Below are positions 16,055 to 30,300 of a stretch of 64,000 bases of DNA, one piece after another. A program made the translations under genes and the position numbers. The notes beneath the pieces are model-generated. The model did not search any database. It was given only the letters and a program-made list of their open reading frames with translations, and had not been told where the DNA came from. The stretch is taken from positions 94,547 to 158,546 of the forward strand of contig CAWBQQ010000002.1 in the NCBI GenBank assembly GCA_963790995.1, read 5' to 3'. This stretch comes from an uncultured Bacteroidota bacterium. GTDB lineage: Bacteria; Bacteroidota; Ignavibacteria; Kryptoniales; JAKASW01. Positions within the stretch are counted from its first letter, which is position 1, and each line of letters begins with the position of its first letter.

Positions 16055-18370
16055 TCAGCGAGTCATCGCGTGATCGTTGTAACGAACAAACAGATCCTGC
16101 CCGGCATCTGTCGCAGCTCTTTTCTTCTTCTTTGAACCCTTTCCCTTTGCAATCGTGCAGCCGGCAGCCAATTCCATAATCTTCTCATACGTGTACCCTA
16201 ACGGGTCGAGCAGTACCTCGATGGCTTTCACCGTCAGCTCGGTGTACTTCTCGACGTCGCAGCCGTCTTCGGTGCGATATAGAATGAACGGCTTTGCCTT
16301 CTCGGGATTCTTCTTTCCCGAAGCATCGATGATTATATATTCGGCTGTCTCGCCCGGCTTCAACGGTACGCCCGCTTCCTTCATTGTCTGTGCCACGACA
16401 GCTTGCATGCTCTTGTTCTCGTACTCGTCGGCTTCCTTCGAAATCGTATGCCGGACTACCAGCTCGAGAGGCGGAACCCTGCCGTTCTTCAACAAGTCGA
16501 GATGGTACCGGACTATATCCATGATTGCCGGAACGAAACTCTTCAGCTCCTCGATGCTCGATGCCTTCGACATCAGATCTATCACCTCTCCCTGAACTTT
16601 ACGAGTAAACAGCGGTATGTCGCCGCGTCTTACTTCAAGGCCGCGCACTTTGACTTCGCCATTTGTGTACGCGCCGATATACCTGTTCGCCGTCGGTATA
16701 TCGGGATTCATTCTTGAAGCGGGGAATAATATCCATTTATAGATTCCTTCGAACGACATACTGATGCCGGTCTCTCCGCTTATTTCTTCGCACAGCTCCT
16801 TGTAGTCTTCTTCTGTTGCTTCCGGTTTCTTCAGGAACAGGCAATCGACTATCCCGTGCATGATTGAAAAGCCCCTGCTCTCCGCTATCTTCTTGGCGTG
16901 AAGCAAATCCCGTCTCGCAAAGGCATTGACCGATTCGTGGGCTTCTATCTTTCCGAAGCGTGCATTTTTATATCCTAAGTAGCCGAAGGTGGTCACGAGC
17001 ATCCACTTCAGAGCGGTCTGCCGCCTGTGGTATTCTTTTTTGGTTGATTCATCAAGAGCGGATTTCTCCCTCTTTTTGTATTCCGCCCGCTTCCTCAGCA
17101 CGGCCCCGATTGTCTCGGGTATTATTCCTCTCCGCTTCTCGCATATCGTATAGTGGAGCTCCGGTACGGAGTCGTTCCGGCAGCAGCTGCAGTTCACGGT
17201 CTCCGGCGAAACGTTGTGTATGGACATTATGCTCGGAAACATGGATGCGAAATCGAGCTCTCCGATGTTTTCGTGGTACCCCATGATAGGCAGATAGATC
17301 AACCCGCCCCTGTCGGCAAGGAGCAATTCCCAGCTCGATTTGAATTTCTCCCATTCCTGCTTCTTCGCCGGGATCAGTATGTCGTGTTTGTACGCCCATG
17401 ATAGCTGCATCGACGATAACCCTGTTCCTATCGTTGCGCGTCCCTGGTCTTGCACCGGTATCTGCGTTATGCGGGAAAGTTCGAACAACCCGTCCAGATC
17501 CGATTCGCCCACGATAAATGAATTCTCCGCGTTGACATGCCATCTTCCGGCAAGCATGAACGCACCAGACCTGTGCACTATTTGTCCGTACGTCCAGTAG
17601 CTCGACTCGTTAGTTGTCCGGTACACTGCCGATTTGTCCCGGTTGAGCTCGATCGGGATTTTCGTCTTCCTCGAAATGTCCACCAGCCATGGCAGCAGCA
17701 CGTCGTCGCCGTAGTTGGTGATGATAATGTCGGGGTCGCTTCGCCTCAGGTGTTCGTTTATACTGCCGAGAAGCTCCTCTGCCGTATCTGCGATTATCTC
17801 GTAAGTCCTGCCGTCGTAAGCGGCTTCCAGGTTCAGGATACCCTGATATTTCGGCGCGACTTCGGAGTTCATCGGGCGCAGTGTCATTACACTAATGGGC
17901 GGGAGCGTGTAATCGATAGCGTCGGATGTGTCATGCAGCTCCACCGACGTCAATTCATCACCATCAAAAGAATACTCTCCGAACGCGAGCGGGAAGAGCT
18001 TCTTTTCATATATGAACATCTGAACCGGAGTAAGATCGGAATTGAAGAAGACATTATAAGAGAACTCCGACTCGAACCGGCGGACAATATTCTTGAAATG
18101 CAGCGTGTCCGGTACCATGATCTCCAGAACGGGTATTTGCCTGCCGGAATAGATTTCGGTTTTGTAAACCCGGTCTTTGGATACGAGACAATGAAAGCTT
18201 GCTGCGGCCTTTTCCGCCCTGTTTCTCTCTTCCCTGCCGACGTGCATATAGAATTTAGGAGTGAATCGTGCGTACCCCTTTATCTTCTTCCCGCATTCGT
18301 CGATCAGCCAGAGTGTAATCCCCTTGTCCGAGACATAGAGGTCAAACAGCCAGGCTTTTACGGTGAGCAT
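16055..18370 (-). CDS. polB: Family B DNA polymerase, archaeal-PolB-like, with degenerate 3'-5' exonuclease motifs
   Basis: This is a 771-aa ORF collinear with archaeal PolB. Polymerase motifs: motif A is LDFASMFPSIM, motif B is KWMLVTTFGYLGY, motif C is HGIVDC (canonical YxDTDS), and KxY/RGLEVRRGD is present. Exo I (FDIE replaced by MTLRP), Exo II (NYGDDVLLPWL, the FD Asp lost) and Exo III (YxxxD not recognisable) appear lost. Confidence 0.85.
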   Translation of the reverse strand: MLTVKAWLFDLYVSDKGITLWLIDECGKKIKGYARFTPKFYMHVGREERNRAEKAAASFHCLVSKDRVYKTEIYSGRQIPVLEIMVPDTLHFKNIVRRFESEFSYNVFFNSDLTPVQMFIYEKKLFPLAFGEYSFDGDELTSVELHDTSDAIDYTLPPISVMTLRPMNSEVAPKYQGILNLEAAYDGRTYEIIADTAEELLGSINEHLRRSDPDIIITNYGDDVLLPWLVDISRKTKIPIELNRDKSAVYRTTNESSYWTYGQIVHRSGAFMLAGRWHVNAENSFIVGESDLDGLFELSRITQIPVQDQGRATIGTGLSSMQLSWAYKHDILIPAKKQEWEKFKSSWELLLADRGGLIYLPIMGYHENIGELDFASMFPSIMSIHNVSPETVNCSCCRNDSVPELHYTICEKRRGIIPETIGAVLRKRAEYKKREKSALDESTKKEYHRRQTALKWMLVTTFGYLGYKNARFGKIEAHESVNAFARRDLLHAKKIAESRGFSIMHGIVDCLFLKKPEATEEDYKELCEEISGETGISMSFEGIYKWILFPASRMNPDIPTANRYIGAYTNGEVKVRGLEVRRGDIPLFTRKVQGEVIDLMSKASSIEELKSFVPAIMDIVRYHLDLLKNGRVPPLELVVRHTISKEADEYENKSMQAVVAQTMKEAGVPLKPGETAEYIIIDASGKKNPEKAKPFILYRTEDGCDVEKYTELTVKAIEVLLDPLGYTYEKIMELAAGCTIAKGKGSKKKKRAATDAGQDLFVRYNDHAMTR

Positions 18371-18471
18371 TTTCCTTATCCGAAATATTAGAAAGGTGTT
18401 TGCGTCCCAGTTTCAATTACTCTTGTTTTCAGTAATTTCACCACCGAGGCACGGAGGCGTTTTGGGCAGCA

Positions 18472-18756
18472 TCATTCAGGTGAATTCGTTTGGACCACTC
18501 CCTTATTCTCAATCTCCTTCATCTCCCTCTGCAGCGCCGCAATCTTTTTATGCTCTTCCAAAAGCATAGACATCAGGATATTCTCGAATGGAAACGGGTT
18601 CATCGCATAAGCACACGCGGCAAGATGAATCTTGGGAGCCTGGAACAGTTCGTCGAACATTTCCTGGTCCTCTTTTCTCAATGCCTCTCTGAATTTTCTC
18701 CACCTCGATTCATATTCATCTGTGAGTTTTGTAAATGTCGGTGCAGTGCGTCCCAT
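18472..18756 (-). CDS. Hypothetical 94-aa protein in the lexA-polB operon
   Basis: The ORF sits 5 nt downstream of the preceding gene's stop. The product is charged and helical-looking (MGRTAPTFTKLTDEYESRWRKFREALRKEDQEMFDELF). I do not recognise a family. Confidence 0.5.
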   Translation of the reverse strand: MGRTAPTFTKLTDEYESRWRKFREALRKEDQEMFDELFQAPKIHLAACAYAMNPFPFENILMSMLLEEHKKIAALQREMKEIENKGVVQTNSPE

Positions 18757-18761
18757 GATAC

Positions 18762-19394
18762 TTACCTCTGAAGAAGCCTTCTGCGCTTGTTCCAGACGAC
18801 GTCGGGATAGAAATCGGAGCTGACTTCGTACACGTCGTCCGCCATCGCTTTCAGCCGCAGCTGGAAGGCTTGCCTTTCCCTCTGGCCCGGTATCAAATTC
18901 TCCGAAGCAATCAGGATCGAAACGCCTGTCTCCTTGAGTGCGCTGAACTTCTCGCTTATTCTTGCAAGACTCTTCTCCGCTTCTTTAACCGATATCTGGT
19001 CATCATAGAAGGTATGAAGCAGGCCGAGCACTATCAGGACTTTTGCCTTGGACTCGTTCAGGAACGGTTCTACTCCGCGCGTTATCACCCCGTCCGCCTG
19101 GAACGCCGTGAAGATTCTCGACACGAAAACCCTGTTCAAGGCTTCAATCGGATCCATGCCGCTCATCCTTGCGAGGCGTGCAAGCCCATAGGCATCGTAC
19201 CTGTTCGCGCCGTTGACAACGGCGACACTGGGAAGCTTCCGCAATATCTCTTTGATAATTACGAGCGTCGTGTAATAGACCATGGTAGAGCCGTAGAGCA
19301 AAGCCGTCTTCCCCGGTACAACTCTGCCTATAGTGTTCGATAGCTCGGTTGTCACGGTACGGTTATCAAGATGTATTTCGGCGGCGGTATTCAT
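18762..19394 (-). CDS. RecA-fold-like protein with an atypical P-loop region (ImuA/RadB-like by architecture only)
   Basis: I place the start at the ATG at 19394 (MNTAAEIHL). It overlaps the DUF72 stop as TAATG. The ORF-track start at 19586 would overlap DUF72 by 190 nt. The segment IGRVVPGKTALLYGSTMVYYTT resembles the G..G.(i/l)t.i.G....GKT segment of RecA/KaiC-like proteins, with the second GKT replaced. Confidence 0.45.
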   Translation of the reverse strand: MNTAAEIHLDNRTVTTELSNTIGRVVPGKTALLYGSTMVYYTTLVIIKEILRKLPSVAVVNGANRYDAYGLARLARMSGMDPIEALNRVFVSRIFTAFQADGVITRGVEPFLNESKAKVLIVLGLLHTFYDDQISVKEAEKSLARISEKFSALKETGVSILIASENLIPGQRERQAFQLRLKAMADDVYEVSSDFYPDVVWNKRRRLLQR

Positions 19395-20326
19395 TATCCG
19401 AACAAATCTCCCAACGGGCTGACGTTTATTCTTTCCGCAATCTTCCCTAACTCCGGGAAATACTTTATCACCGTGTCGGGTATGCGAACCTTTTCCACAT
19501 TGCGAAGCCTCTTTACAAGCTCCAGGGCATTTGCGACAGCCTTTCCCATCGGATGGTTGTTTGCGACGACATATACCCTGTCGCATCTCTCTTTCACTTT
19601 CCGGATTTTCCTTTCGATCTCGTCAAGCTCGGAAACGCCATACAGGTAATCATACCGGGCGTTGCGATCCATGTTATCATTCTCCGTGCCTTCTCTCAGT
19701 TCGTGCCGGCTGAGGCTCCACATTCCGGAATTCCTGCCGTGCAGGCGAATGTACCCGGTCTGCCCGAAAAGTTCGGTATCGAGCTCTGCCATGCCTTTGA
19801 GTAGCGGCTGGTCAATCGCGACGGCGTTGATGCCGTTTTGTTTGAGAAATTCCCTCCCGCGCTCCGTGTACCATGATGCGTGGCGAAGCTCGAAGAACAG
19901 CGTAAGATCGTGAAATTCACGGGCGATAAGAGAGACGTAAGACTTGTTTGGAATGTTTTCTTTGAAGTATTCCGAGAACTGGACGAGGACGCCGCCAAGC
20001 TTGCCTTGCTCCCTGAGCGGCGAAAGAAAATCCAGTATTATCTTCTTGTTGCCGTCGAACTCCTCATCCTTCCCGCGGCTCCCGTGCGTGAATTCCTTGT
20101 AGAGCTTCACTATGAAAACGAATTTCGGATTATGATCAACTTCCTTCAGCCACTTTTCAGATGCGGCTGGCGGAAAATGGCGATAATAAGTGCTGTTTAC
20201 TTCGACGCAATCGAAGAAGTCCGCGTAGAACTTCAATTCCGAAAACCCTTTCTGTTTCTTTTCAGGGTAGAACGGGCCGTGCCAATCGGCATAGCTCCAG
20301 CCTGCTGTGCCACCAAAGACTTCCAT
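19394..20326 (-). CDS. DUF72 (YecE-like TIM-barrel) family protein
   Basis: The N-terminus MEVFGGTAGWSYADWHGPFYP is typical of DUF72. The ATG at 20326 lies 1 nt after the lexA stop. The ORF-track start at 20359 would overlap lexA. Confidence 0.75.
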   Translation of the reverse strand: MEVFGGTAGWSYADWHGPFYPEKKQKGFSELKFYADFFDCVEVNSTYYRHFPPAASEKWLKEVDHNPKFVFIVKLYKEFTHGSRGKDEEFDGNKKIILDFLSPLREQGKLGGVLVQFSEYFKENIPNKSYVSLIAREFHDLTLFFELRHASWYTERGREFLKQNGINAVAIDQPLLKGMAELDTELFGQTGYIRLHGRNSGMWSLSRHELREGTENDNMDRNARYDYLYGVSELDEIERKIRKVKERCDRVYVVANNHPMGKAVANALELVKRLRNVEKVRIPDTVIKYFPELGKIAERINVSPLGDLFG

Positions 20327-20327
20327 T

Positions 20328-20954
20328 TCAATTAAGCCGCTTCTGTTTATGCTTTTCATAATTCTTAACGACGCTTATTACTCTTCCGAGTATCTCGAAA
20401 TCTGTCCCTTCGTCTTTTCTGTCGAGGATTATCGGTTTGTAATTGGGATTCTCCGACCTTAATACAATCCTGCCGCTCGTTCTTTTAAACCTCTTCACGA
20501 CGGGGCCGCCGTTGACACGCGCAATGACTATCGAGTTGTCATTCACCGAGTCCGTTTTCCGGTAGAATACTATCGAGCCGTCGGTTATACCTGCGTCCAC
20601 CATGCTATCCCCTCTTACAAGCATTCCCCTGTCTCCTTGTTTGATTCCAAGCGCATCCTTAGTGCTCAGGTAATCGATCGGTTCTTCGTCGGCAAACCCG
20701 GGAGAACCGGCTTTCACAAACGCGAAAATCGGAATTCGATCTTCACCCTTCAGCAGTCGAATACCGCGAGAGAGGCCGGCGTCTTTCCTTATAAAGCCCT
20801 TCTCCTGGAGCTTGTTAAGAATCTTCTGGACCGCACCTATTGTCACTTCGGTTCCTACGGCGATCTCTCGAATGCTCGGCGAGTAGCCTCTTTCCTTTGT
20901 AAACCTTTCTATGAAGCCGAGAGTTTCTTTCTGCCTTTCGCTTATTTCAATCAT
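20328..20954 (-). CDS. lexA: LexA repressor (S24 autopeptidase)
   Basis: The product has an N-terminal winged HTH (GYSPSIREIA), an Ala-Gly cleavage site (FVKAGSPGF), the Ser nucleophile (VRGDSMVDAGI) and the Lys (VVKRFKR). The start is taken at MIEISERQ. Confidence 0.9.
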   Translation of the reverse strand: MIEISERQKETLGFIERFTKERGYSPSIREIAVGTEVTIGAVQKILNKLQEKGFIRKDAGLSRGIRLLKGEDRIPIFAFVKAGSPGFADEEPIDYLSTKDALGIKQGDRGMLVRGDSMVDAGITDGSIVFYRKTDSVNDNSIVIARVNGGPVVKRFKRTSGRIVLRSENPNYKPIILDRKDEGTDFEILGRVISVVKNYEKHKQKRLN

Positions 20955-20976
20955 TTCTCTTCTCAATGAGTACCTG

Positions 20977-20992
20977 GTATACGAATGTATAC
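20977..20992. promoter_or_regulatory. Candidate LexA operator: GTATAC-N4-GTATAC in the lexA/helicase divergent promoter region
   Basis: The sequence GTATACGAATGTATAC lies 23-38 nt upstream of the lexA ATG, inside the 161-nt divergent intergenic region. The motif assignment is an inference only. Confidence 0.3.
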
Positions 20993-21115
20993 ATGCCGAT
21001 CCTGAAAGTCAAGCCCAAATACGCTCAAATCAAAATTCGTTCGATATTTGTTATCTTAAGCGTATGGAAAAGCAGGCGTTTCTTTTTACAAGACATTCAC
21101 AAAAAGAAATTTGTA

Positions 21116-23148
21116 ATGGCAGAGCAGGTAGATTCGAAAAATAAAGATTCCGGCGGCGGCGAGACAAAAACATACACGATAAAGACAAGCACGGTCGGAG
21201 AAGTTCAGCGCCGCGTTTTCAAAATCGATTACGAGCGAGACCTTAATCCCGACCAGCTTGAGGTCGTCCGGACGATTGACAGCCCGGTTCTCGTGGTTGC
21301 CGGCGCAGGAACAGGCAAGACGAAGGTGCTGATTTATCGGGTCGCCTATCTGGTTGAGCTCGGGGAGAATCCACGCTCCATTTTGCTTCTTACCTTTACA
21401 CGCAAGGCGGCAAGCGAAATGTTGAAGCGAGCCGCGTCTTTGCTTAAATCCACGTCGGCAGAACAAGTATCCGGCGGGACATTCCATTCATTCGCGAACA
21501 TGACCTTGAGGCATTATGCGAAAGCCCTCGGATACGGCGAGCAGTTCACGATTCTTGATGATTCCGACGCAGCAGACGTTGTGAATCTCCTGCGGACCCG
21601 GCTCGGGCCGGAAAAGAAGGCAAAGCGCTTTCCAAAGAAGGAAGCTCTCGTCGATATGTTCAGCAAATCGGAGAACACGCTGACAAAAATCGAAGAGGTT
21701 GTATTCATAGAGTATTCGCAGTTTACCGACCATATAAACGATATCATGACGCTCAAGAGACAATATGACGAATACAAGCGTAAGTACAATTTAATGGATT
21801 ACGACGACCTGCTGAAAAATCTCAGGCGGCTTCTGGAGCAGAACGAATCGATACGGAAAGCGATAGCCGGAAAATTCAGCTACATCATGGTCGACGAGTT
21901 TCAGGATACCAACAAAGTGCAGGGCGAAATCGTAAGGCTTCTCGGTATGGATAAGCAGAACGTCATGGCTGTCGGGGACGATGCACAGAGCATCTATTCA
22001 TTTCGCGGCGCAAATTTCAAAAACATCTTCGACTTCCCTGCCTTTTTCCCCGGATGCAAGATTATCAAGCTGACTGAGAACTACCGTTCGACGCAGGGCA
22101 TTCTTAATTTCACGAACAGAATTATTGAGGGAGCGAAGGAAAAGTACGATAAGGAGCTTTTCTCGCGGAAGGAAGCGGGAGAAAAGCCTGCTGTCGTCGT
22201 AACGGAAAATGAAAACGTCCAATCGAAGTTCGTCGTGCAGAGAATTCTCGAGCTTCGCGAGGCGGGAATGATTCTCAATGACATCGCAGTGCTTTTCCGT
22301 TCCTCGTACTTATCGTTCGATCTGGAAATTGAGCTCACGCGCGCGAATATCCCGTACGTGAAATTCGGCGGCATGAAATTAGTCGAGGCTGCCCACATCA
22401 AAGACGTTATCGGCTTCCTCAGAGTGATCGAGAACCCGCGCGACGCCGTTAGCTGGCACAGGATTCTGCTTCTCCACGCCGGTATCGGTCCTGCCATTGC
22501 AGAAAAGATTATCGGCAGAATTACTGCGGAGGGCGAAGAGACGCCGGCACTTGACACTGGAGGCACGAATATCCCGCCCGGTGCAGAAGATACTTATGAG
22601 CCTCATTTCAGAGAGAGGAAATAAGAAAGTTCAGCCGGTCGAGCAGGTTGAAGCGGTCATTCATTACTACGAGCCTTTAATGCGCGCCAAGTATGACGAT
22701 TACCAAAAGCGCGAGAAGGATCTTGCGATGCTCGCTTCGATTGCCGAGCGGTATAAATCGCTCCAGAGCTTCCTATCCGACCTCGCCCTGGAACCTCCCA
22801 CCGAGAGCCACATAGTATCTCGGAGCGAAAGACAAGAAAGAGGAACAAATAACGATTTCGACTGTCCATTCCGCAAAAGGGCTGGAGTGGAACAGCGTGT
22901 TTGTTATCTGGACGCTTGACGGGAAATTTCCGCCGATGTATGCTACCGATGATGACGATGCGCTTGAAGAAGAGAGAAGATTGATGTACGTCGCATGCAC
23001 AAGAGCCAAAGAGAATCTTTACATCACATATCCGGTGAACGTGTACGATCGGGAAACCGGCCGCATCTTTACAAAGCCAAGCAGGTACATTGAAGCAGTA
23101 CCCGCCGACAATTATGTGAAGTGGAATCTGAATTTCGACGCGCAATGA
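21116..23148 (+). pseudogene. UvrD/PcrA-family superfamily-1 helicase interrupted by two +1 frame displacements
   Basis: The gene is spread over three frames. Frame 1 (21116-22624) carries VVAGAGTGKTKVL, MVDEFQDTN and YRST. Frame 2 (about 22560-22919) carries VEAVIHYYEPLMRAKYDDYQKREKDLAMLAS. Frame 3 (22816-23148) carries EEQITISTVHSAKGLEWNSVFVIW...EEERRLMYVACTRAKENLYITY. The frame switches lie at about 22540-22600 and 22816-22845. Confidence 0.8.
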
Positions 23149-24133: not shown

Positions 24134-24970
24134 TCAGACATTGGCAACCTGAGACGGATAATAAGCTTCTGGAGCTGGGGGCCTGTAGCCGAGAGAGCTA
24201 TGAGGTCTGACAGTGTTGTAGTGGATTCTCCACTTTTCGATGACGACTTTTGCTTCCATGATTGTGTCAAACACCTCTCGATTAAGTAACTCATCTCTGA
24301 ACTTCCCATTGAACGATTCGATGTAACCGTTCTCCCATGGACTGCCGGGCTCGATGAAAGCTGTGGTGACACCCAGGTGATGGAGCCATCTCCGTAGAAG
24401 CTCAGCGACGAACTCAGGTCCGTTGTCCGAGCGTATGAACTGTGGCGTACCATAGGCGATGAATATATCAGACAATGTATCGATCACGTCATTGGCTTTG
24501 ATCTTTCTCTCCACTCGACTGGTAAGACATGTTCTCGTGTACTCGTCGATTATGTTCAGTATTCGTAGCGCTCTCCCGTCACTGGTTCTCTCCGCAACAA
24601 AATCATAGCTCCAGACATGGTTCTTGTGTTCTGGACGGAGTCTTTTGCACGATCCGTCGTTGAACCACAGTCGTCTCCGCTTTGGCTGTTTTTGTGGCAC
24701 TTTTAGCCCTTTCTGGCGCCATAGCCTTTCCACTCGCTTGTGGTTCACATGCCATCCTTCTGTTCTCAAGAGAACTGTTATTCGCCTGTATCCATATCGT
24801 CCATACTCGCTGGCGAGCTCCACCATTCGTTCTGTAAGCCGTTCTGTGGCTGCATCCAGCCTTGCCACCACTCTTTGTGTTGACCTTGGTTGTTCCACTA
24901 CCTTGCAGGCTCTGCGTTCGGACACTTGTACTATCTCCATAACTTCTTCCACCGCCCGGCGTTTCTTCAC
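24134..24970 (-). CDS. IS3-family transposase OrfB (DDE/rve integrase core), probably expressed as an OrfAB fusion by -1 frameshifting
   Basis: The 278-aa product contains HVWSYDFV..., IRSDNGPEF and ESFNGKFRDELLN, the rve-domain DDE motifs. The ORF lies in the -1 frame relative to orfA. Confidence 0.9.
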   Translation of the reverse strand: MKKRRAVEEVMEIVQVSERRACKVVEQPRSTQRVVARLDAATERLTERMVELASEYGRYGYRRITVLLRTEGWHVNHKRVERLWRQKGLKVPQKQPKRRRLWFNDGSCKRLRPEHKNHVWSYDFVAERTSDGRALRILNIIDEYTRTCLTSRVERKIKANDVIDTLSDIFIAYGTPQFIRSDNGPEFVAELLRRWLHHLGVTTAFIEPGSPWENGYIESFNGKFRDELLNREVFDTIMEAKVVIEKWRIHYNTVRPHSSLGYRPPAPEAYYPSQVANV

Positions 24971-24975
24971 CGGGC

Positions 24976-25254
24976 TCAGTAGTTTCCCCGTGCGGCTTCC
25001 TTCAGTATTGAGTTATCTATTGTCAGATCTGCTGCCACCTTCCGGAGACGCTGGTTCTCCTGCTCGAGCTCCTTGTACCGCTTTGCTTGATCCACCTGAA
25101 GTCCACCGTATTCCTTCCTCCACTTGTAATATGTTGCATCGCTGATCCCCAGTTGTCGGACTACCTCAGCCAGCGTTTGGCCTTTTGCCATCATGACTTC
25201 TGCTTCTCGCAGCTTTGCTACAATTGTTTCTACCGTGTGTCGCGGCTTTCCCAT
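24976..25254 (-). CDS. IS3-family transposase OrfA (HTH)
   Basis: The 92-aa product MGKPRHTVETIVAKLREAEVMMAKGQTLAEVVRQLGISDATYYKWRKEYGG plus a leucine-zipper-like tail is typical of IS3 OrfA. Confidence 0.9.
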   Translation of the reverse strand: MGKPRHTVETIVAKLREAEVMMAKGQTLAEVVRQLGISDATYYKWRKEYGGLQVDQAKRYKELEQENQRLRKVAADLTIDNSILKEAARGNY

Positions 25255-25718: not shown

Positions 25719-26734
25719 TCAGCGGTCTTCCAAGAAGTTCTGCGGCTCTTCCGGAAGAGATCAGATCTTCGCTGACAGCCTGCAGGATCAGTCTTTCGAA
25801 TTGTCTCGGCTCTTCCGGCGGTATCAGATCTCCAGGCTCTTGTGAAGTCCATCCTCTAGACCGAAAAGTTTTGAATAAAATTGCAGCACAGCTGTTAGTA
25901 ATTATTCCAAGGTCCTGTGCTCTGTACACCCACGCCTGCATGCTTAAGCCATACTTTTTCTTAAGCATTGAAAGCTCAAGCAATTCAATACGTCGGCGAT
26001 GTTCCCCTAACTCTCGACATGCGGCCTCAGCAGGAACAAGAAACGACGCGGCAAACCTGTGTGCTGCTTTCTCGGGGTCGAACGTTTTTAGAAACTCTCA
26101 ACAGGAGGTGACCGAGCTCGTGCGCGAGGTTGAATCGTTCCCTGTCTCCAGTTAAACCTTTCTTCACAACGACGACAGGTATTTTGCCATTGGCCCAGCA
26201 AGAAAGGCCATCGAAATCATCATCACCGTCGAGTAAGATGACCTTGACGCCCCTGTCTTCGAATACCTCAAGCACATTCTCGATCGGGTCGATACCAAGG
26301 TTCCATCGTTTACGGAGTCTAAGCGATGATTCTTCGGCATCTTGGATTTTACTTATCTGCCTTTCTGAAGCAGGTGGCATTGTAAACCTCCGGAACCTTT
26401 TAGGCGGATACAATGATTCGACAAAGAGGTACCTTTCCAAAAGCTCTTGAGTTTTGGCTTTCAACACTTGTAGCCCCTTTGCCGATGCACCACCTCGCTT
26501 GCGATAAGCGGGTTCACTCAGTTCAACTGCATGTTCCTGCTCCCGGAAGAAGAACTCCACTTTGACACCAAGCGCGCCTGCTAATCGAAGAAGCACATCA
26601 GACCCGGGCATCGAGGTGTCTTGTTCATACTTGTGGATAGCTTGCCTGGAAACATAGTTCTGGGTCCTTTCGGCAAGTTCTTCAAGGGAAAGACCAAGCG
26701 CGATTCTGCGCTGTTTTATCCGGTCTCCAACCAT
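25657..26734 (-). CDS. XRE-family HTH fused to an ImmA/IrrE-type zinc metallopeptidase domain, split by a +1 frame displacement near the T5/A5 run at 26085-26089
   Basis: ORF 26027-26734 carries the HTH (IKQRRIALGLSLEELAERTQNYVSRQAIHKYEQ) and the HELGHLLL zinc motif. The other frame continues with DPEKAAHRFAASFLVPAEAA...LSMLKKKYGLSMQAWVYRAQDLGII (ORF 25657-25983), which is the remainder of the ImmA/IrrE domain. Confidence 0.75.
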
Positions 26735-26755
26735 AATATTTTCCTCCCAATGACA

Positions 26756-26793
26756 GTTGACAAATTAATAAATATATGAACGTTTGTCAACTA
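26756..26793. promoter_or_regulatory. Perfect 10-bp inverted repeat AGTTGACAAA-N18-TTTGTCAACT upstream of the XRE-ImmA gene (candidate operator/promoter)
   Basis: The repeat is seen directly 22-59 nt upstream of the ATG at 26734 and contains TTGACA. Its function is inferred. Confidence 0.35.
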
Positions 26794-26948
26794 CCGAAAA
26801 TTCCCATTGAAGGCGAAGAATGAATGCTGCCCCCTAACGATCCGGCAAAGAAGTAAGATCATTCGGCGCGCGATTCGCGTATCTATATGGTGTTATTTCT
26901 TGGGCACGTGTGAACGTGGGGGTATTTTTTGGGGGAAAGGAAAGATGG

Positions 26949-27527
26949 CTATTTCTTGAATCTGGAGAAGTATTCGTCTATTTCTGAACGAAGCTCGATT
27001 CCTACTCGCTCGAAGATATTTAATAATTCATCATACGCACCTTCGCCACCGATAAAATCCCAAAACTCTTTTGCAACTTTAAGCTCGTTGTCCAAATCAA
27101 GCATTCCTCTCATAGTCCAGCGATTATAAGGCTGTGGTTCGTATGGATTGTACGGAATAGCTATGATTGTATTTACTTTTGACTTTGGGTTTTCGGCAAG
27201 CACGGCAGCAACCCATTCCAACAACGTCCGCTTAAATTCTTTAAACCCTCCTGCGTTTGGCTTAGCAGTCTTAATGTCGAAGAGAAACAGTTCACCAGAG
27301 TTGCTTTCAATTTGGACATCGACTCGAGTCGGTTTCACCTTCTTCATCTTGCCTTTTTGACATACCTTTCGAATCTTTTCAATTTCTTTTGCCTTGTTCG
27401 GTGAATCGCTCGCTGTTGTTAGATCATCCATTATCTCTTGTATAACTTTATGAGCTTCTACGCTTATTTGTGTGCCCGCTATGGCTTGCGATTGGGCAGA
27501 CTTAAAATTCTTTCGCGCCAACGCCAA
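26949..27527 (-). CDS. Putative type II restriction endonuclease with a PD-(D/E)xK signature (possibly TdeIII-like)
   Basis: This is a 192-aa ORF. The segment PTRVDVQIESNSGELFLFDIKTAKPN fits the pattern D...x13...(D/E)xK. It lies in an operon-like array with a DNA methyltransferase. The family name comes from memory and has not been verified. Confidence 0.45.
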   Translation of the reverse strand: MALARKNFKSAQSQAIAGTQISVEAHKVIQEIMDDLTTASDSPNKAKEIEKIRKVCQKGKMKKVKPTRVDVQIESNSGELFLFDIKTAKPNAGGFKEFKRTLLEWVAAVLAENPKSKVNTIIAIPYNPYEPQPYNRWTMRGMLDLDNELKVAKEFWDFIGGEGAYDELLNIFERVGIELRSEIDEYFSRFKK

Positions 27528-27612
27528 AGCGACAGGTTCAAAGATCGCAGTACCAAAGTTTGTGTTGAGCGAAACGATTGATGCGGAAACGTCCGCTGGG
27601 ATTGATGTTTGC

Positions 27613-28449
27613 CTAAAGGTCTATTTTCTCTCTCAGTTCGCGGAGATTCAACTCCGCAGCGTAAAGCTCACCAACTGACTCCGCGAGAACGTGATGATAC
27701 CTGGTGGCCTGTTCAGAATAAATTTGGACTACCTGATTATATTTCTTATCGTCGTCTGAAATGACGTACAACCTTGCATTTGCATAATCTATCAGAGTCC
27801 CCATGCGACCGACGCCTGACCAGACCCCAGTCGAGAGTTCCACTTCAAAAGCATATTCCGGTATAAGATTACTGTTCTTCTCTCTAAACCATAGGACATC
27901 AATCTGTCGAAGAATCTCATAGTTTGAAAACTGGAGTTGCGGGCATACCGGCAATGTGGCAATCTCGATAAGTTTCTTGTCGTTGAACCTTTTTGACTTG
28001 TTGGGACAAAACGTTTGATACCCTCTAATATTTCCTATCTCCAACAACCTGCCCTGAAGCACCGAATGAAAACTCTCTTCCGCCGAATTACTTCCCCCAG
28101 GCATGGCACGAGCTTTCTTCAGGGAGTCCCAAGCGTTAATAAATTGGGAACAGTTCAGCCGGTTCTTTTTTCCCGACAAAATAACATTTAGCTGACCATC
28201 GATTACAATTTTATATTCACCATCTCGATCGTGGCTCATGAGTGGAAGTTGGCCGATGAGGACGGGCGCTGGAATGATCAAGGTTCGGTCCAACGAGCCA
28301 CAAATAAATGCAAAGAATGGGTTGTCAAGGTTTGCAACCTCCTCGGCGCTGACATAATTCAGCCCAAAAAAGAATCGCTTGTTTGCTCCTTCCGATGAGG
28401 CACGGATAAGAATGTTTGCCTCGCCAATCTTGTAAGCGCGAGTTTTCAA
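27613..28449 (-). CDS. Hypothetical protein with a nuclease-like C-terminal domain (D...EVE motif); second endonuclease candidate
   Basis: This is a 278-aa ORF. The sequences HSVLQGRLLEIGNIRGYQTF...IDVLWFREKNSNLIPEYAFEVELSTGVWSGVGRM resemble restriction-endonuclease-fold cores. The family is not recognised. Confidence 0.4.
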   Translation of the reverse strand: MKTRAYKIGEANILIRASSEGANKRFFFGLNYVSAEEVANLDNPFFAFICGSLDRTLIIPAPVLIGQLPLMSHDRDGEYKIVIDGQLNVILSGKKNRLNCSQFINAWDSLKKARAMPGGSNSAEESFHSVLQGRLLEIGNIRGYQTFCPNKSKRFNDKKLIEIATLPVCPQLQFSNYEILRQIDVLWFREKNSNLIPEYAFEVELSTGVWSGVGRMGTLIDYANARLYVISDDDKKYNQVVQIYSEQATRYHHVLAESVGELYAAELNLRELREKIDL

Positions 28450-28544
28450 AACTTTGATGGGTTCGATAAGTGTATCTAATTGCTTTGCCCTCTCAAGGAA
28501 TTGAGCAGCTAGATTGTCTGTATGGTAGCGAATCTTAGACAGCT

Positions 28545-28757
28545 TCAGATAGCCTCCTCAATTTCTTGGCACTCAAATGCGTCGTTCCACATTGTTTCAA
28601 TGTTTTCGATTTTGAATCCAAATTCCTTTCGATGGTTTTCAGTAGAGAGATCTCGTTCGCCTATGAAGAGATCCGCCGCCTGTTTTGCATCTTCTCTATT
28701 GGTTGCTTCAATCGTAACGGAATAAGTTCGAGACAACCCAACTTTAAATCGTGGCAT
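28545..28757 (-). CDS. Hypothetical 70-aa protein between the methyltransferase and nuclease candidates
   Basis: The ATG is preceded by AGGAAG and overlaps the methyltransferase 3' end by 14 nt. I do not recognise a family. Confidence 0.4.
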   Translation of the reverse strand: MPRFKVGLSRTYSVTIEATNREDAKQAADLFIGERDLSTENHRKEFGFKIENIETMWNDAFECQEIEEAI

Positions 28758-30300
28758 GTTTTCTTCCTTTCGAAAAATAATTTGATCTTTTCAAAAAATG
28801 TACGTGCTGCTGTTGAAAGACTGAAAATACTCTTTCGTTTTCCTGCCCGTTTGCCTTATGACCGATTTCTAATTCATCCTGACGCTTGAATCCGAATAGA
28901 TCGTAAGCGTAGGCGTGCTGTTCGTGATAATCGATCAGTCCAACGTAAGGTGGACTGGAAAATACGCCCGCGATCTTTTGTCTTTTGATAAGTGCGGCAA
29001 ATGCGGGGTCGTGTCTTTCTGTCTCACCTATAATATCAATGGATTTGCTGTCTCCTGTAAGGCAGTATTGGTAAGTCTCTGTCCGAAGTTTTTTGAATTG
29101 AGCCAGACGCATTGCAGTGTCTTTAGTGTATGTCTCCCACCATTTTAGGATTGAGAAGAGCGGCTTACATATTTTTCCATGCTTCGCACAATAATAAGTG
29201 GTTGTAACACGCTCAAGAAGCGTCGCCAAATCTGCATGAGTGGTAGCGCGACAGGACCGTATTGTTCGGCTTAAAATAATGCTGATAATTTTTTTGGTGT
29301 CGGGATTCTTAATCTTTTTAATCTCACCAAAAACAAACTCGATCTCATTACGAATATGAGGAGAGTACCATTTATCCATGAAGGTGTCTTCCTTATCCTG
29401 TCGAACTTTGATTCGGTATTCTTTTACGAGATGCTGAAAGGTTGGCAAAAATTCCCTGGCTTTTTCCGCTCCGTACGATTCCTCGTCAATTTCATCGCTT
29501 TTGACTTTGTATTTGTATTCCGGCACCGGAAAGAATTCATTGTTGAATTTGTACAGCGCCTGTAAGAGCCTTTCTTCAAACTCCAAAGTATGGGAGTCGG
29601 CAAGAAACGCCTTCAATGCGATACTAATTCGCTGAATCTCTTTATGAACGTCGATAAGATCGAACTTCGTGACCTTGCAATTACTGATCAGTGCGTTAAA
29701 TGCAGAAACATCGATGCCGATGCCGTGCATGCCAAGTTCGTTTGCTTGTACCAGCATTGTTCCGCTTCCGCAAAACGGATCGAGAATAATGTCGCTCGTA
29801 TGAAAATAGGCTTTCTCCTTAAAAGCATCAGTGTGTTCATCCAAGAAGTACTCGACCAATTGCGGAATGAATTTCCCTTTATACGGATGCAAGCGATGTA
29901 CATGCTTCGTTGTCTCGGCCTCCGTAAATTGATCGAAGGACAGTGCCCAGTTTAAATCTTTTCCGAGCTGATCTTTCCACGAAAGCTCTCTTCGCCCGTT
30001 GAAGGACTGGTAGTATTTTTCTAACTCTCGCAATGAAATTTGCGTCGCACCATTCTCGCCATGTTTCTGAACTCGACCATATTGAATCAAATATGATATA
30101 TTCGAAGGCGTTACCTTCTTCCCAAGGTGATTTGTGGCCCATTCAGCTGCCTCTTTGATGCTTAACAAATCAGATTCCGTTTCAAATAGGGTTGGGATGG
30201 AACGGACTTGATATTTTGTGGCCTGCTCTGAAACGCGCGGCTTCACCGAGGAATGTTTTTGGGATTCACGCTTGAGGTTTTTATTTTTGGGTTTTGCCAT
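28744..30300 (-). CDS. DNA methyltransferase (amino-methyltransferase, SPPY motif IV, likely N4-cytosine or N6-adenine)
   Basis: This is a 518-aa ORF. Motif I is ILDPFCGSGTMLVQA and motif IV is VFSSPPYVGLIDY, about 270 aa downstream, which gives an alpha-like motif order. The C-terminal 40 aa look unusual, and I could not confirm an intact 3' end. Confidence 0.75.
   Translation of the reverse strand: MAKPKNKNLKRESQKHSSVKPRVSEQATKYQVRSIPTLFETESDLLSIKEAAEWATNHLGKKVTPSNISYLIQYGRVQKHGENGATQISLRELEKYYQSFNGRRELSWKDQLGKDLNWALSFDQFTEAETTKHVHRLHPYKGKFIPQLVEYFLDEHTDAFKEKAYFHTSDIILDPFCGSGTMLVQANELGMHGIGIDVSAFNALISNCKVTKFDLIDVHKEIQRISIALKAFLADSHTLEFEERLLQALYKFNNEFFPVPEYKYKVKSDEIDEESYGAEKAREFLPTFQHLVKEYRIKVRQDKEDTFMDKWYSPHIRNEIEFVFGEIKKIKNPDTKKIISIILSRTIRSCRATTHADLATLLERVTTTYYCAKHGKICKPLFSILKWWETYTKDTAMRLAQFKKLRTETYQYCLTGDSKSIDIIGETERHDPAFAALIKRQKIAGVFSSPPYVGLIDYHEQHAYAYDLFGFKRQDELEIGHKANGQENERVFSVFQQQHVHFLKRSNYFSKGRKHATI

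Follow-up and report, generated by a model that had tools for sequence, protein, structure and literature searches.

Makarova, Krupovic and Koonin described in 2014 that the genes for PolB2, for an inactivated RadA and for a protein of the arCOG07300 family are linked, and that lexA is part of the same predicted operon in some bacteria, for example in Leptospirillum ferriphilum (LFML04_0990-0993) (PMC4104785). Timinskas, Timinskas and Venclovas (2025) named the two partners of the polymerase iRadA and PPB2 and used AlphaFold-Multimer and AlphaFold3 to model a PolB2:iRadA:PPB2(3) heteropentamer, with beta-clamp motifs (QLxLF-like) in either PolB2 or iRadA; among the 1823 operons of their study, lexA, DUF72 and SRAP are neighbours in 108, 119 and 134 cases, respectively, and iRadA-PPB2-PolB2 is the sole gene order reported for bacteria (PMC11791011). 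A survey from 2026 describes bacterial PolB2 (group G2) as an archaeal import without proofreading. A function is known only for the Dpo2 polymerase of Sulfolobus, which is damage-inducible and exonuclease-free, is responsible for targeted mutagenesis and efficiently extends termini at mismatches or opposite lesions (PMC7390963, PMC8764526). Here, we describe a lexA-headed PolB2 operon on a 64,000 nucleotide stretch from an uncultured Bacteroidota bacterium (Kryptoniales; JAKASW01; assembly GCA_963790995.1, contig CAWBQQ010000002.1, positions 94,547-158,546); this whole stretch is called the window below, and all positions refer to it.

We read the locus, with a probability of roughly 0.8, as a bacterial PolB2 mutasome operon that would be derepressed in the SOS response by LexA cleavage and would serve proofreading-free extension at lesions and mismatches, with DUF72 as an optional component. 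A preliminary description of the same DNA had regarded the composition of this cassette as uncharacterised. This novelty does not hold, as a lexA-bearing operon of this kind has been in the literature since 2014 (PMC4104785) and the enrichment of lexA and DUF72 since 2025 (PMC11791011): the operon type is already described computationally, the window holds a further bacterial instance of it, and the finding opens no new category. The additions made here are modest and consist of a predicted LexA operator of the Kryptoniota with symmetric half-site drift, the loss of DUF72 by deletion, and a recurring UvrD-like neighbour.

The operon consists of five intact open reading frames (ORFs) on the minus strand, and the coordinates, gaps and start-stop overlap given in the preliminary description were all found as stated when the junctions were read from the sequence. 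The first gene is lexA (20328..20954, 208 aa), which ends with ...AAT TGA and is separated by 1 nt from the ATG of the gene for a DUF72 TIM barrel protein (19394..20326, 310 aa). The TAA of this gene overlaps by 1 nt with the ATG of a gene for a 210-aa protein (TAATG; GGATAATGAAT), which we assign to iRadA (18762..19394). After a gap of 5 nt follows the gene for a 94-aa protein, assigned to PPB2 (18472..18756), and after a further 101 nt (18371..18471) the gene for the 771-aa family B polymerase (16055..18370). We infer from the sequence that the five genes are co-transcribed from a single LexA-repressed promoter.

The polymerase matches PF00136 (E = 3e-33) and scores highest in NCBIfam with archaeal models of the PRK05761 type, at 394 and 360 bits, while the Pol II models of NCBIfam reach 23-61 bits against cutoffs of 570-1435. 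Residues 7-718 align to the archaeal PolB model NF004416, which has 665 positions, with about 70 extra residues. Within the palm segment (residues 453-513), 42/61 and 43/61 residues are identical to two bacterial PolB2 proteins, the former from Ignavibacteriales, and 34/61 to an archaeal PolB2 (comparison sequences taken from a table of PMC11791011). On these sequence criteria, namely NCBIfam scores and palm-segment identities, the polymerase is placed in the PolB2 group of family B and not with Pol II, PolB1, PolB3 or protein-primed PolB.

The states of the catalytic motifs were determined from an alignment to Pyrococcus abyssi PolB and from a family alignment of 15 homologues with 52-87% identity. 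In place of the ExoI motif D-I-E, the polymerase has E144-L-H146, in columns that are unconserved in the family; ExoII (N..F-D) is changed to Y220..V224-L225 and ExoIII (Y..D) to R276..N280. The alignment of the N-terminal part to P. abyssi PolB is of low confidence, and a Pfam scan of the polymerase did not detect DNA_pol_B_exo1. Judged from these motif states, the active site of the 3'-5' exonuclease is lost, in agreement with the loss of proofreading motifs noticed in the preliminary description. Motif A with D373 (ELDFASMFPS) is present and motif B is retained; motif C (HGIVDCLF) reads I507-V508-D509 and has thus lost the first Asp of DxD. The altered exonuclease residues, the reading of motif C and the NCBIfam scores led us to reject a conventional PolB or Pol II. 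In a separate observation, the polymerase ORF of three loci of our sample (L052, L055, L073) is in two to three pieces, which could reflect decay or sequencing errors.

The loss of the first motif C Asp together with all exonuclease residues raises the question of whether the polymerase is inert and the complex instead plays a regulatory or structural part at stalled forks, such as that of a brake that interacts with the clamp or with RecA; this was also the sense in which PolB2 was originally read as 'inactivated' (PMC4104785). However, Sulfolobus Dpo2, with this Asp substitution as well (IID), polymerises robustly (PMC8764526; PMC11791011), and none of the 15 homologues deviates at Asp373, at the motif B lysine or at Asp509. 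An inert polymerase is therefore very unlikely.

Two further features of the polymerase concern its partners. L242-N243-R244-D245 is invariant and followed by K246, and this corresponds to the D(K/R) loop motif of PolB2, which is preceded by a beta-alpha segment predicted to bind iRadA (PMC11791011). The C-terminal tail of the polymerase, KKKKRAATDAGQDLFVRY (KKKKR...GQDLF), consists of a basic linker and QDLF; by its sequence, QDLF is a candidate beta-clamp motif only. No beta-clamp motif was found in the tail of the window iRadA.

Local Pfam and NCBIfam scans gave no matches for either the 210-aa or the 94-aa protein (the Pfam copy did not contain PF26485). A search of the Protein Data Bank (PDB) with the single 210-aa sequence gave weak matches to RadA/Rad51 (E = 0.37). 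A profile built from 32 homologues out of related loci had archaeal RadA as its top match (E = 4e-9), with Rad51, DMC1 and RadB next, and RecA was not among the matches of this profile. The AlphaFold2 model of the protein has a predicted local distance difference test score (pLDDT) of 85.6, and all of its top 50 Foldseek matches in the PDB are RadA, Rad51 or Dmc1, with a probability of 1.00. The protein comprises the core only, without the N-terminal helical domain; its P-loop region (PGKTALLYGST) is without a GKT/S Walker A motif and IVLG stands in place of IVD at the Walker B position (Asp to Gly). Because of the RadA/Rad51 matches of both profile and model and the loss of the Walker residues, the 210-aa protein is identified, by sequence and predicted structure, as an ATPase-dead RadA/Rad51 core, iRadA; the earlier designation as RecA-fold-like is correct at the level of the RecA superfamily and can be narrowed down to RadA/Rad51-like.

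The 94-aa protein is PPB2 (formerly arCOG07300). It starts with MGRTAPTFT, and the MGRT start, which Timinskas et al. describe as a hallmark of PPB2 (PMC11791011), is present in 59 of its 64 homologues from related loci. Homologues of the protein carry PF26485 (DUF8156) according to precomputed Pfam assignments. In its model, PPB2 consists of alpha helices only, the C-terminal one being long. Its tail at the C-terminus is unlike that of the relatives, where the protein has 101 aa compared to 94 aa in the window.

Relatives of the polymerase were searched in one genome per species and found in at least 574 species-level genomes, from which 80 loci (numbered L001 onwards) were kept. These loci are from the Fibrobacteres-Chlorobi-Bacteroidetes (FCB) group, Nitrospirota, Thermodesulfobacteriota, Chloroflexota, Armatimonadota and others, and their gene content was determined by ORF calling and iterated hidden Markov model searches. 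The trio was counted in those 60 loci whose upstream sequence extends over 1.5 kb or more, and lexA, DUF72 and helicase genes in those 53 where it extends over 4 kb or more. The gene linkage, which the preliminary description had proposed to check in other genomes, proved to be conserved: iRadA, PPB2 and PolB2 are encoded on one strand and in that order in 56/60 loci, and lexA and DUF72 recur in 22/53 (~40%) and 19/53 (~36%) loci, respectively, with both present in 7/53. A UvrD-like helicase is present in 7/53 loci, each of which also has DUF72. Bacterial PolB2 operons are thus widespread, with the 1823 operons of the 2025 survey (PMC11791011) pointing the same way. In three loci (L014, L017 and L072), whose upstream sequence likewise covers 4 kb or more, a PolB2 relative is present without detectable iRadA or PPB2.

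Within our locus sample, the full order lexA-DUF72-iRadA-PPB2-PolB2 is found only in another Kryptoniota genome (L005) and, with DUF72 reduced to a remnant, in L081, the closest relative, which has 87% PolB identity; L082, L083, L001, L003 and L004 have lexA-iRadA-PPB2-PolB2 only. Together with the window, these seven related lexA-bearing loci make up a clade in which lexA accompanies the trio in 8/8 cases, while the genes that flank the cassette differ in each close relative. From this comparison of sequences, the unit from lexA to polB2 relocates as a block.

Changing flanks would also be expected if the genes were adjacent by chance or part of a decaying acquired island, with lexA as the host SOS repressor gene that merely happens to lie upstream; the adjoining helicase gene is broken, and an insertion sequence of the IS3 family and a restriction-modification/RmrA-like islet are situated 3-10 kb away. 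However, all five ORFs are intact with junctions that overlap or nearly so, lexA stays with the trio in the entire clade despite the changing flanks, the operator described below is conserved, and full-length homologues of the polymerase are present in at least 574 species genomes. We consider chance or decay highly improbable.

The mobile and defence genes just mentioned are as follows. The IS3-family element (24134-25254, minus strand) consists of orfA (HTH_Tnp_1) and orfB (rve) and is situated about 1 kb past the broken helicase gene. A stretch of low GC content (0.43-0.46) at 26027-30300 on the minus strand has three genes and forms a small defence islet near the cassette: a type II DNA methyltransferase (PADLOC, E = 4e-204), a weak type II restriction-enzyme-like ORF and an RmrA-like XRE/M78-peptidase of 235 aa, compared to 360-400 aa of the models. 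PADLOC found no meaningful defence match among the five cassette proteins; a match of the polymerase to 'HEase' is presumably caused by a model of an intein-containing polymerase. There are no tRNA genes in the 64-kb window. A casposon, a protein-primed PolB element or a mobile element with terminal repeats was rejected, as there are no meaningful direct or inverted repeats in the flanks.

The repressor gene at the head of the operon is canonical by its sequence. The protein matches TIGR00498 with 140.3 bits (cutoff 110.95) and both PF01726 and PF00717, and the elements of self-cleavage are all kept (Ala82-Gly83, Ser117 and Lys154), as the preliminary description had stated; the cleavage apparatus is thus intact by its sequence. 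Upstream of lexA, a consensus scan identified a sigma-70-like promoter on the minus strand (20984..21012), with TTGACT and TACATT separated by 17 nt. The -10 hexamer TACATT falls inside a perfect dyad at 20977..20992 (GTATAC-GAAT-GTATAC on the plus strand), which is the sole ATAC-N4-GTAT site within the 64-kb window and which we read as the predicted LexA operator.

A dyad is present at the same position before lexA in all seven related loci (L001, L003, L004, L005, L081, L082 and L083), with the variants GGTATAC-ATTT-GTATACC, CCATAC-ATTT-GTATGG, ACCATAC-ATTT-GTATGGT and ACCCTAC-ATTT-GTAGGGT. When the eight lexA upstream regions are aligned, the -35 element TTGAC and the -10 element TACATT, together with the GTA of TACATT..GTA, are invariant within diverged flanks, and the outer positions of the half-sites vary on both arms together. 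Four of the seven half-site positions vary on both arms, symmetry is kept in 96% of the cells of the comparison, and the covariation is 0.536 compared to 0.203 in shuffles, a value matched by none of 500 shuffles. An RNA hairpin was considered as a different reading of the dyad and judged unlikely: TACATT is located 17 nt from TTGAC, both are invariant, and the left arm of the dyad would fall upstream of the transcription start.

The sequence of the window dyad is unlike the published LexA boxes CTGT-N8-ACAG, GGA-N5-TCC and CTAA-N5-TTAG, and has the AC-N4-GT core in common with GAAC-N4-GTTC. Classical LexA boxes of this last type are found in PolB2 operons of Armatimonadota, Ca. Fervidifonticultor, Ignavibacteriota and Nitrospirota: upstream of lexA at L064:5708-5723 and directly before iRadA at L076:7031-7046, L080:6992-7007 and L028:6903-6918, in the latter three even without an adjacent lexA. 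In Ignavibacteria, a 16-bp palindrome ACGACA-N4-TGTCGT is present between the iRadA-PPB2-PolB2 genes and a divergent gene for an S24-peptidase repressor (L009:6851, L019:6928, L028:6872, L030:6792, L034:6848, L010:4313 and L022:1658). This repressor aligns to the window LexA over the peptidase domain only, and the palindrome is, from its sequence and position, a candidate lineage-specific SOS operator. None of the published Bacteroidetes LexA motifs that were compared equals the window dyad, the GAAC-N4-GTTC boxes or the Ignavibacteria palindrome. SOS-type control of PolB2 operons seems to be general, with operators that are lineage-specific.

The DUF72 protein of the window matches PF01904 (E = 5e-47, 161 bits against a cutoff of 25.3) and the structures of TM1631 (PDB 1vpq, E = 5e-26) and EF0366 (1vpy, E = 6e-20), and is 53% identical to the DUF72 protein encoded at the same position in L005. 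In the closest relative, a 40-aa ORF between lexA and iRadA (L081:6946-7068) is 84% identical to residues 1-43 of the window protein, and its sequence identifies it as a DUF72 remnant left by an internal deletion. DUF72 is ancestral in the clade of the window, yet it is a dispensable accessory, because it is deleted in the closest relative and missing from most loci.

Divergent to the operon, the preliminary description had noticed a gene for a UvrD-like helicase. The gene is there (21116..23148, plus strand; UvrD/PcrA-like, with pieces of PF00580 and PF13361), but is disrupted: it runs through three frames (20966-22624, 22497-22919 and 22897-23148), with frameshifts near 22550-22575 and 22815-22830, neither of which is in a long homopolymer, and is either a pseudogene or affected by assembly errors. 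The gene probably starts with the ATG at 21116 and not at 20966. The encoded protein is 52-65% identical to helicases that are found beside DUF72 and PolB2 operons in seven Ignavibacteria loci, where the helicase gene adjoins DUF72 and is divergent from iRadA-PPB2-PolB2. Because the orthologue adjoins the PolB2 operon in these seven loci, the association of the helicase with PolB2 operons is not random. The helicase is absent beside the cassette in the loci of the nearest relatives, it is broken in the window, and the DUF72 beside the Ignavibacteria copy belongs to a different subgroup from the window DUF72; for these reasons it is possibly an accessory neighbour and not a part of the operon. 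A promoter region shared with uvrD under SOS control, as had been proposed, is weak in view of the frameshifts and of the absence in the nearest relatives, and no promoter of the helicase gene was found in the window.

In one Ignavibacteria locus (L016:18-4112, minus strand), the helicase is encoded as two genes, for an N-terminal half of ~338 aa (PF00580) and a C-terminal half of ~346 aa (PF13361), with a gene for a 300-aa homocysteine S-methyltransferase (PF02574, E = 5e-69) between the halves, downstream of DUF72. The same split layout is present in L007, L008, L013 and L031, and these assemblies are from different projects.

DUF72 and the helicase bear on the question of whether the cassette acts in SOS excision or gap repair: DUF72 would nick at lesions in the way of a UV-damage endonuclease, a dedicated UvrD-like helicase would then remove the damaged strand by displacement, and synthesis by the PolB2 complex would close the gap, with mutagenesis as a by-product. 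The presence of DUF72 with PolB2 operons in 19/53 loci would fit, as would the position of the helicase orthologue beside DUF72 and a PolB2 operon in seven Ignavibacteria loci as well as in the window; archaeal Dpo2 is of high fidelity on undamaged DNA, and the DUF72 TIM barrel is reported to be a close relative of UV-damage endonuclease (PMC11791011). However, DUF72 is deleted in the closest relative and missing from most loci, and the helicase is frameshifted in the window, absent in the nearest relatives and accompanied in Ignavibacteria by a DUF72 of another subgroup. Moreover, we know of no nuclease activity of a DUF72 protein. Taken together, we regard excision or gap repair as the main function as unlikely. 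It is rather improbable that Kryptoniota and Ignavibacteria have a larger LexA-gated module with a nuclease-like DUF72 protein and the UvrD-like helicase, which would incise, unwind and resynthesise, bypass UvrABC and be governed by a LexA of the cassette that co-evolves with its own operator, as suggested by the symmetric half-site changes, and that is a private regulator and not the global SOS repressor.

We thus favour a LexA-controlled PolB2 mutasome, for which the following course of events is proposed. In undamaged cells, a LexA dimer would sit on GTATAC-N4-GTATAC over the -10 hexamer and repress all five genes, including lexA itself. Upon damage, the filament of RecA on single-stranded DNA would trigger self-cleavage of LexA at Ala82-Gly83, dependent on Ser117 and Lys154, and the operon would be derepressed; both LexA binding and damage inducibility are predicted from sequence. 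PolB2, one iRadA and a PPB2 trimer may then assemble, with the MGRT arm of PPB2 between PolB2 and iRadA, as expected from the published AlphaFold models, and the complex may perhaps be tethered to the beta-clamp by PolB2 through its basic linker and QDLF tail. Without proofreading, the complex would extend primer termini opposite lesions and mismatches, and such translesion synthesis (TLS), which we infer for the window PolB2 by analogy to the experiments with archaeal Dpo2, would allow survival at the cost of mutations. DUF72, with its relationship to the UV-damage endonuclease, would be dispensable and would probably process damaged DNA. The cassette is a descendant of the archaeal Dpo2/PolB2 system; it is real and has probably a role in DNA damage tolerance. 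The proposal of an SOS damage-tolerance cassette made in the preliminary description is plausible.

Several points weigh against this interpretation. The first Asp of motif C is missing, and polymerase activity is assumed solely by analogy to Sulfolobus Dpo2. QDLF is degenerate and one residue short of QxxLF; the corresponding residues in relatives are QQELF, QLDLF, QLSLF or QELPLF. The spacer of 101 nt that separates PPB2 from polB2 is peculiar to the genome of the window: it has ~80-100 extra bases in comparison with L081 and L082, in which PPB2 and the start of polB2 overlap, contains an inverted repeat (ATTACT-N9-AGTAAT), and could uncouple polB2 expression from the upstream genes. The dyad comparison comprises about four independent lineages only, and there is one operator copy within 64 kb. 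With a pLDDT of 69, the model of the PPB2 monomer is only moderately confident; Foldseek found no matches with it, and the published sigma-factor-like fold (PMC11791011) was not reproduced. Finally, we found no experiments on any bacterial PolB2 operon in the literature.

If the bacterial form works like Sulfolobus Dpo2, it would add a third type of SOS mutasome to Pol V and ImuA-ImuB-DnaE2 and would be a source of damage-induced mutations in many environmental phyla. The locus in the window is clean and compact, with five intact genes behind a single promoter and a single predicted operator, and could suit heterologous reconstitution; the series of operators with symmetric half-site changes is a ready test set for LexA specificity.

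Of all described systems, the bacterial PolB2 (G2) operon is closest to the window. It has the same three core genes in the same order, a PolB2 without exonuclease site, with xxD in place of DxD and with the D-K loop motif, an iRadA without N-terminal domain and ATPase residues, and a PPB2 with the MGRT arm; lexA belongs to the predicted operon and DUF72 is an enriched neighbour. The window differs in having both lexA and DUF72 in one five-gene unit, with DUF72 between lexA and iRadA. Neither the operator sequence nor the UvrD-like neighbour is present in the text or in the table of the top 20 neighbours of PMC11791011, and Kryptoniota are not among the rows listed in its supplementary tables.

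The three core proteins are also all homologous to those of the Dpo2 system of Sulfolobus islandicus, which provides the functional model that we transfer by analogy to the window, namely that of a damage-inducible, proofreading-free TLS extender. In contrast to the LexA predicted for the window, the archaeal system is regulated by Orc1-2/Cdc6-type factors; it has PCNA rather than beta-clamp motifs and a variable gene order, and the window polymerase, with its 771 aa, keeps a fuller N-terminal/exonuclease-like region.

The parallel to imuA-imuB-dnaE2, to which the cassette had been compared in the preliminary description, is one of organisation: both are, in the case of the window by prediction, LexA-controlled, horizontally mobile multi-gene cassettes (lexA is sometimes linked to imuA-imuB-dnaE2, too) that combine a degenerate protein of the RecA superfamily with an error-prone polymerase without proofreading. 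The two were rightly kept apart, however, as none of the five proteins has a match to models of Y- or C-family polymerases in Pfam or NCBIfam and there is thus neither a Y-family ImuB nor a C-family DnaE2. The window polymerase is of family B and not homologous to the family C polymerase DnaE2, the RecA-fold protein is derived from RadA/Rad51, and PPB2, modelled as a trimer, is an extra subunit. E. coli Pol V (UmuD'2C-RecA) resembles the PolB2 complex as an SOS-induced TLS polymerase with a small dimeric or trimeric accessory protein and one subunit of the recombinase fold, an analogy drawn in PMC11791011, but is of the Y-family and uses active RecA. E. coli Pol II shares with the window PolB2 that it is of family B, SOS-induced and equipped with a C-terminal clamp motif (in the window, a predicted and a candidate feature, respectively), but keeps its 3'-5' proofreading and works as a single subunit.

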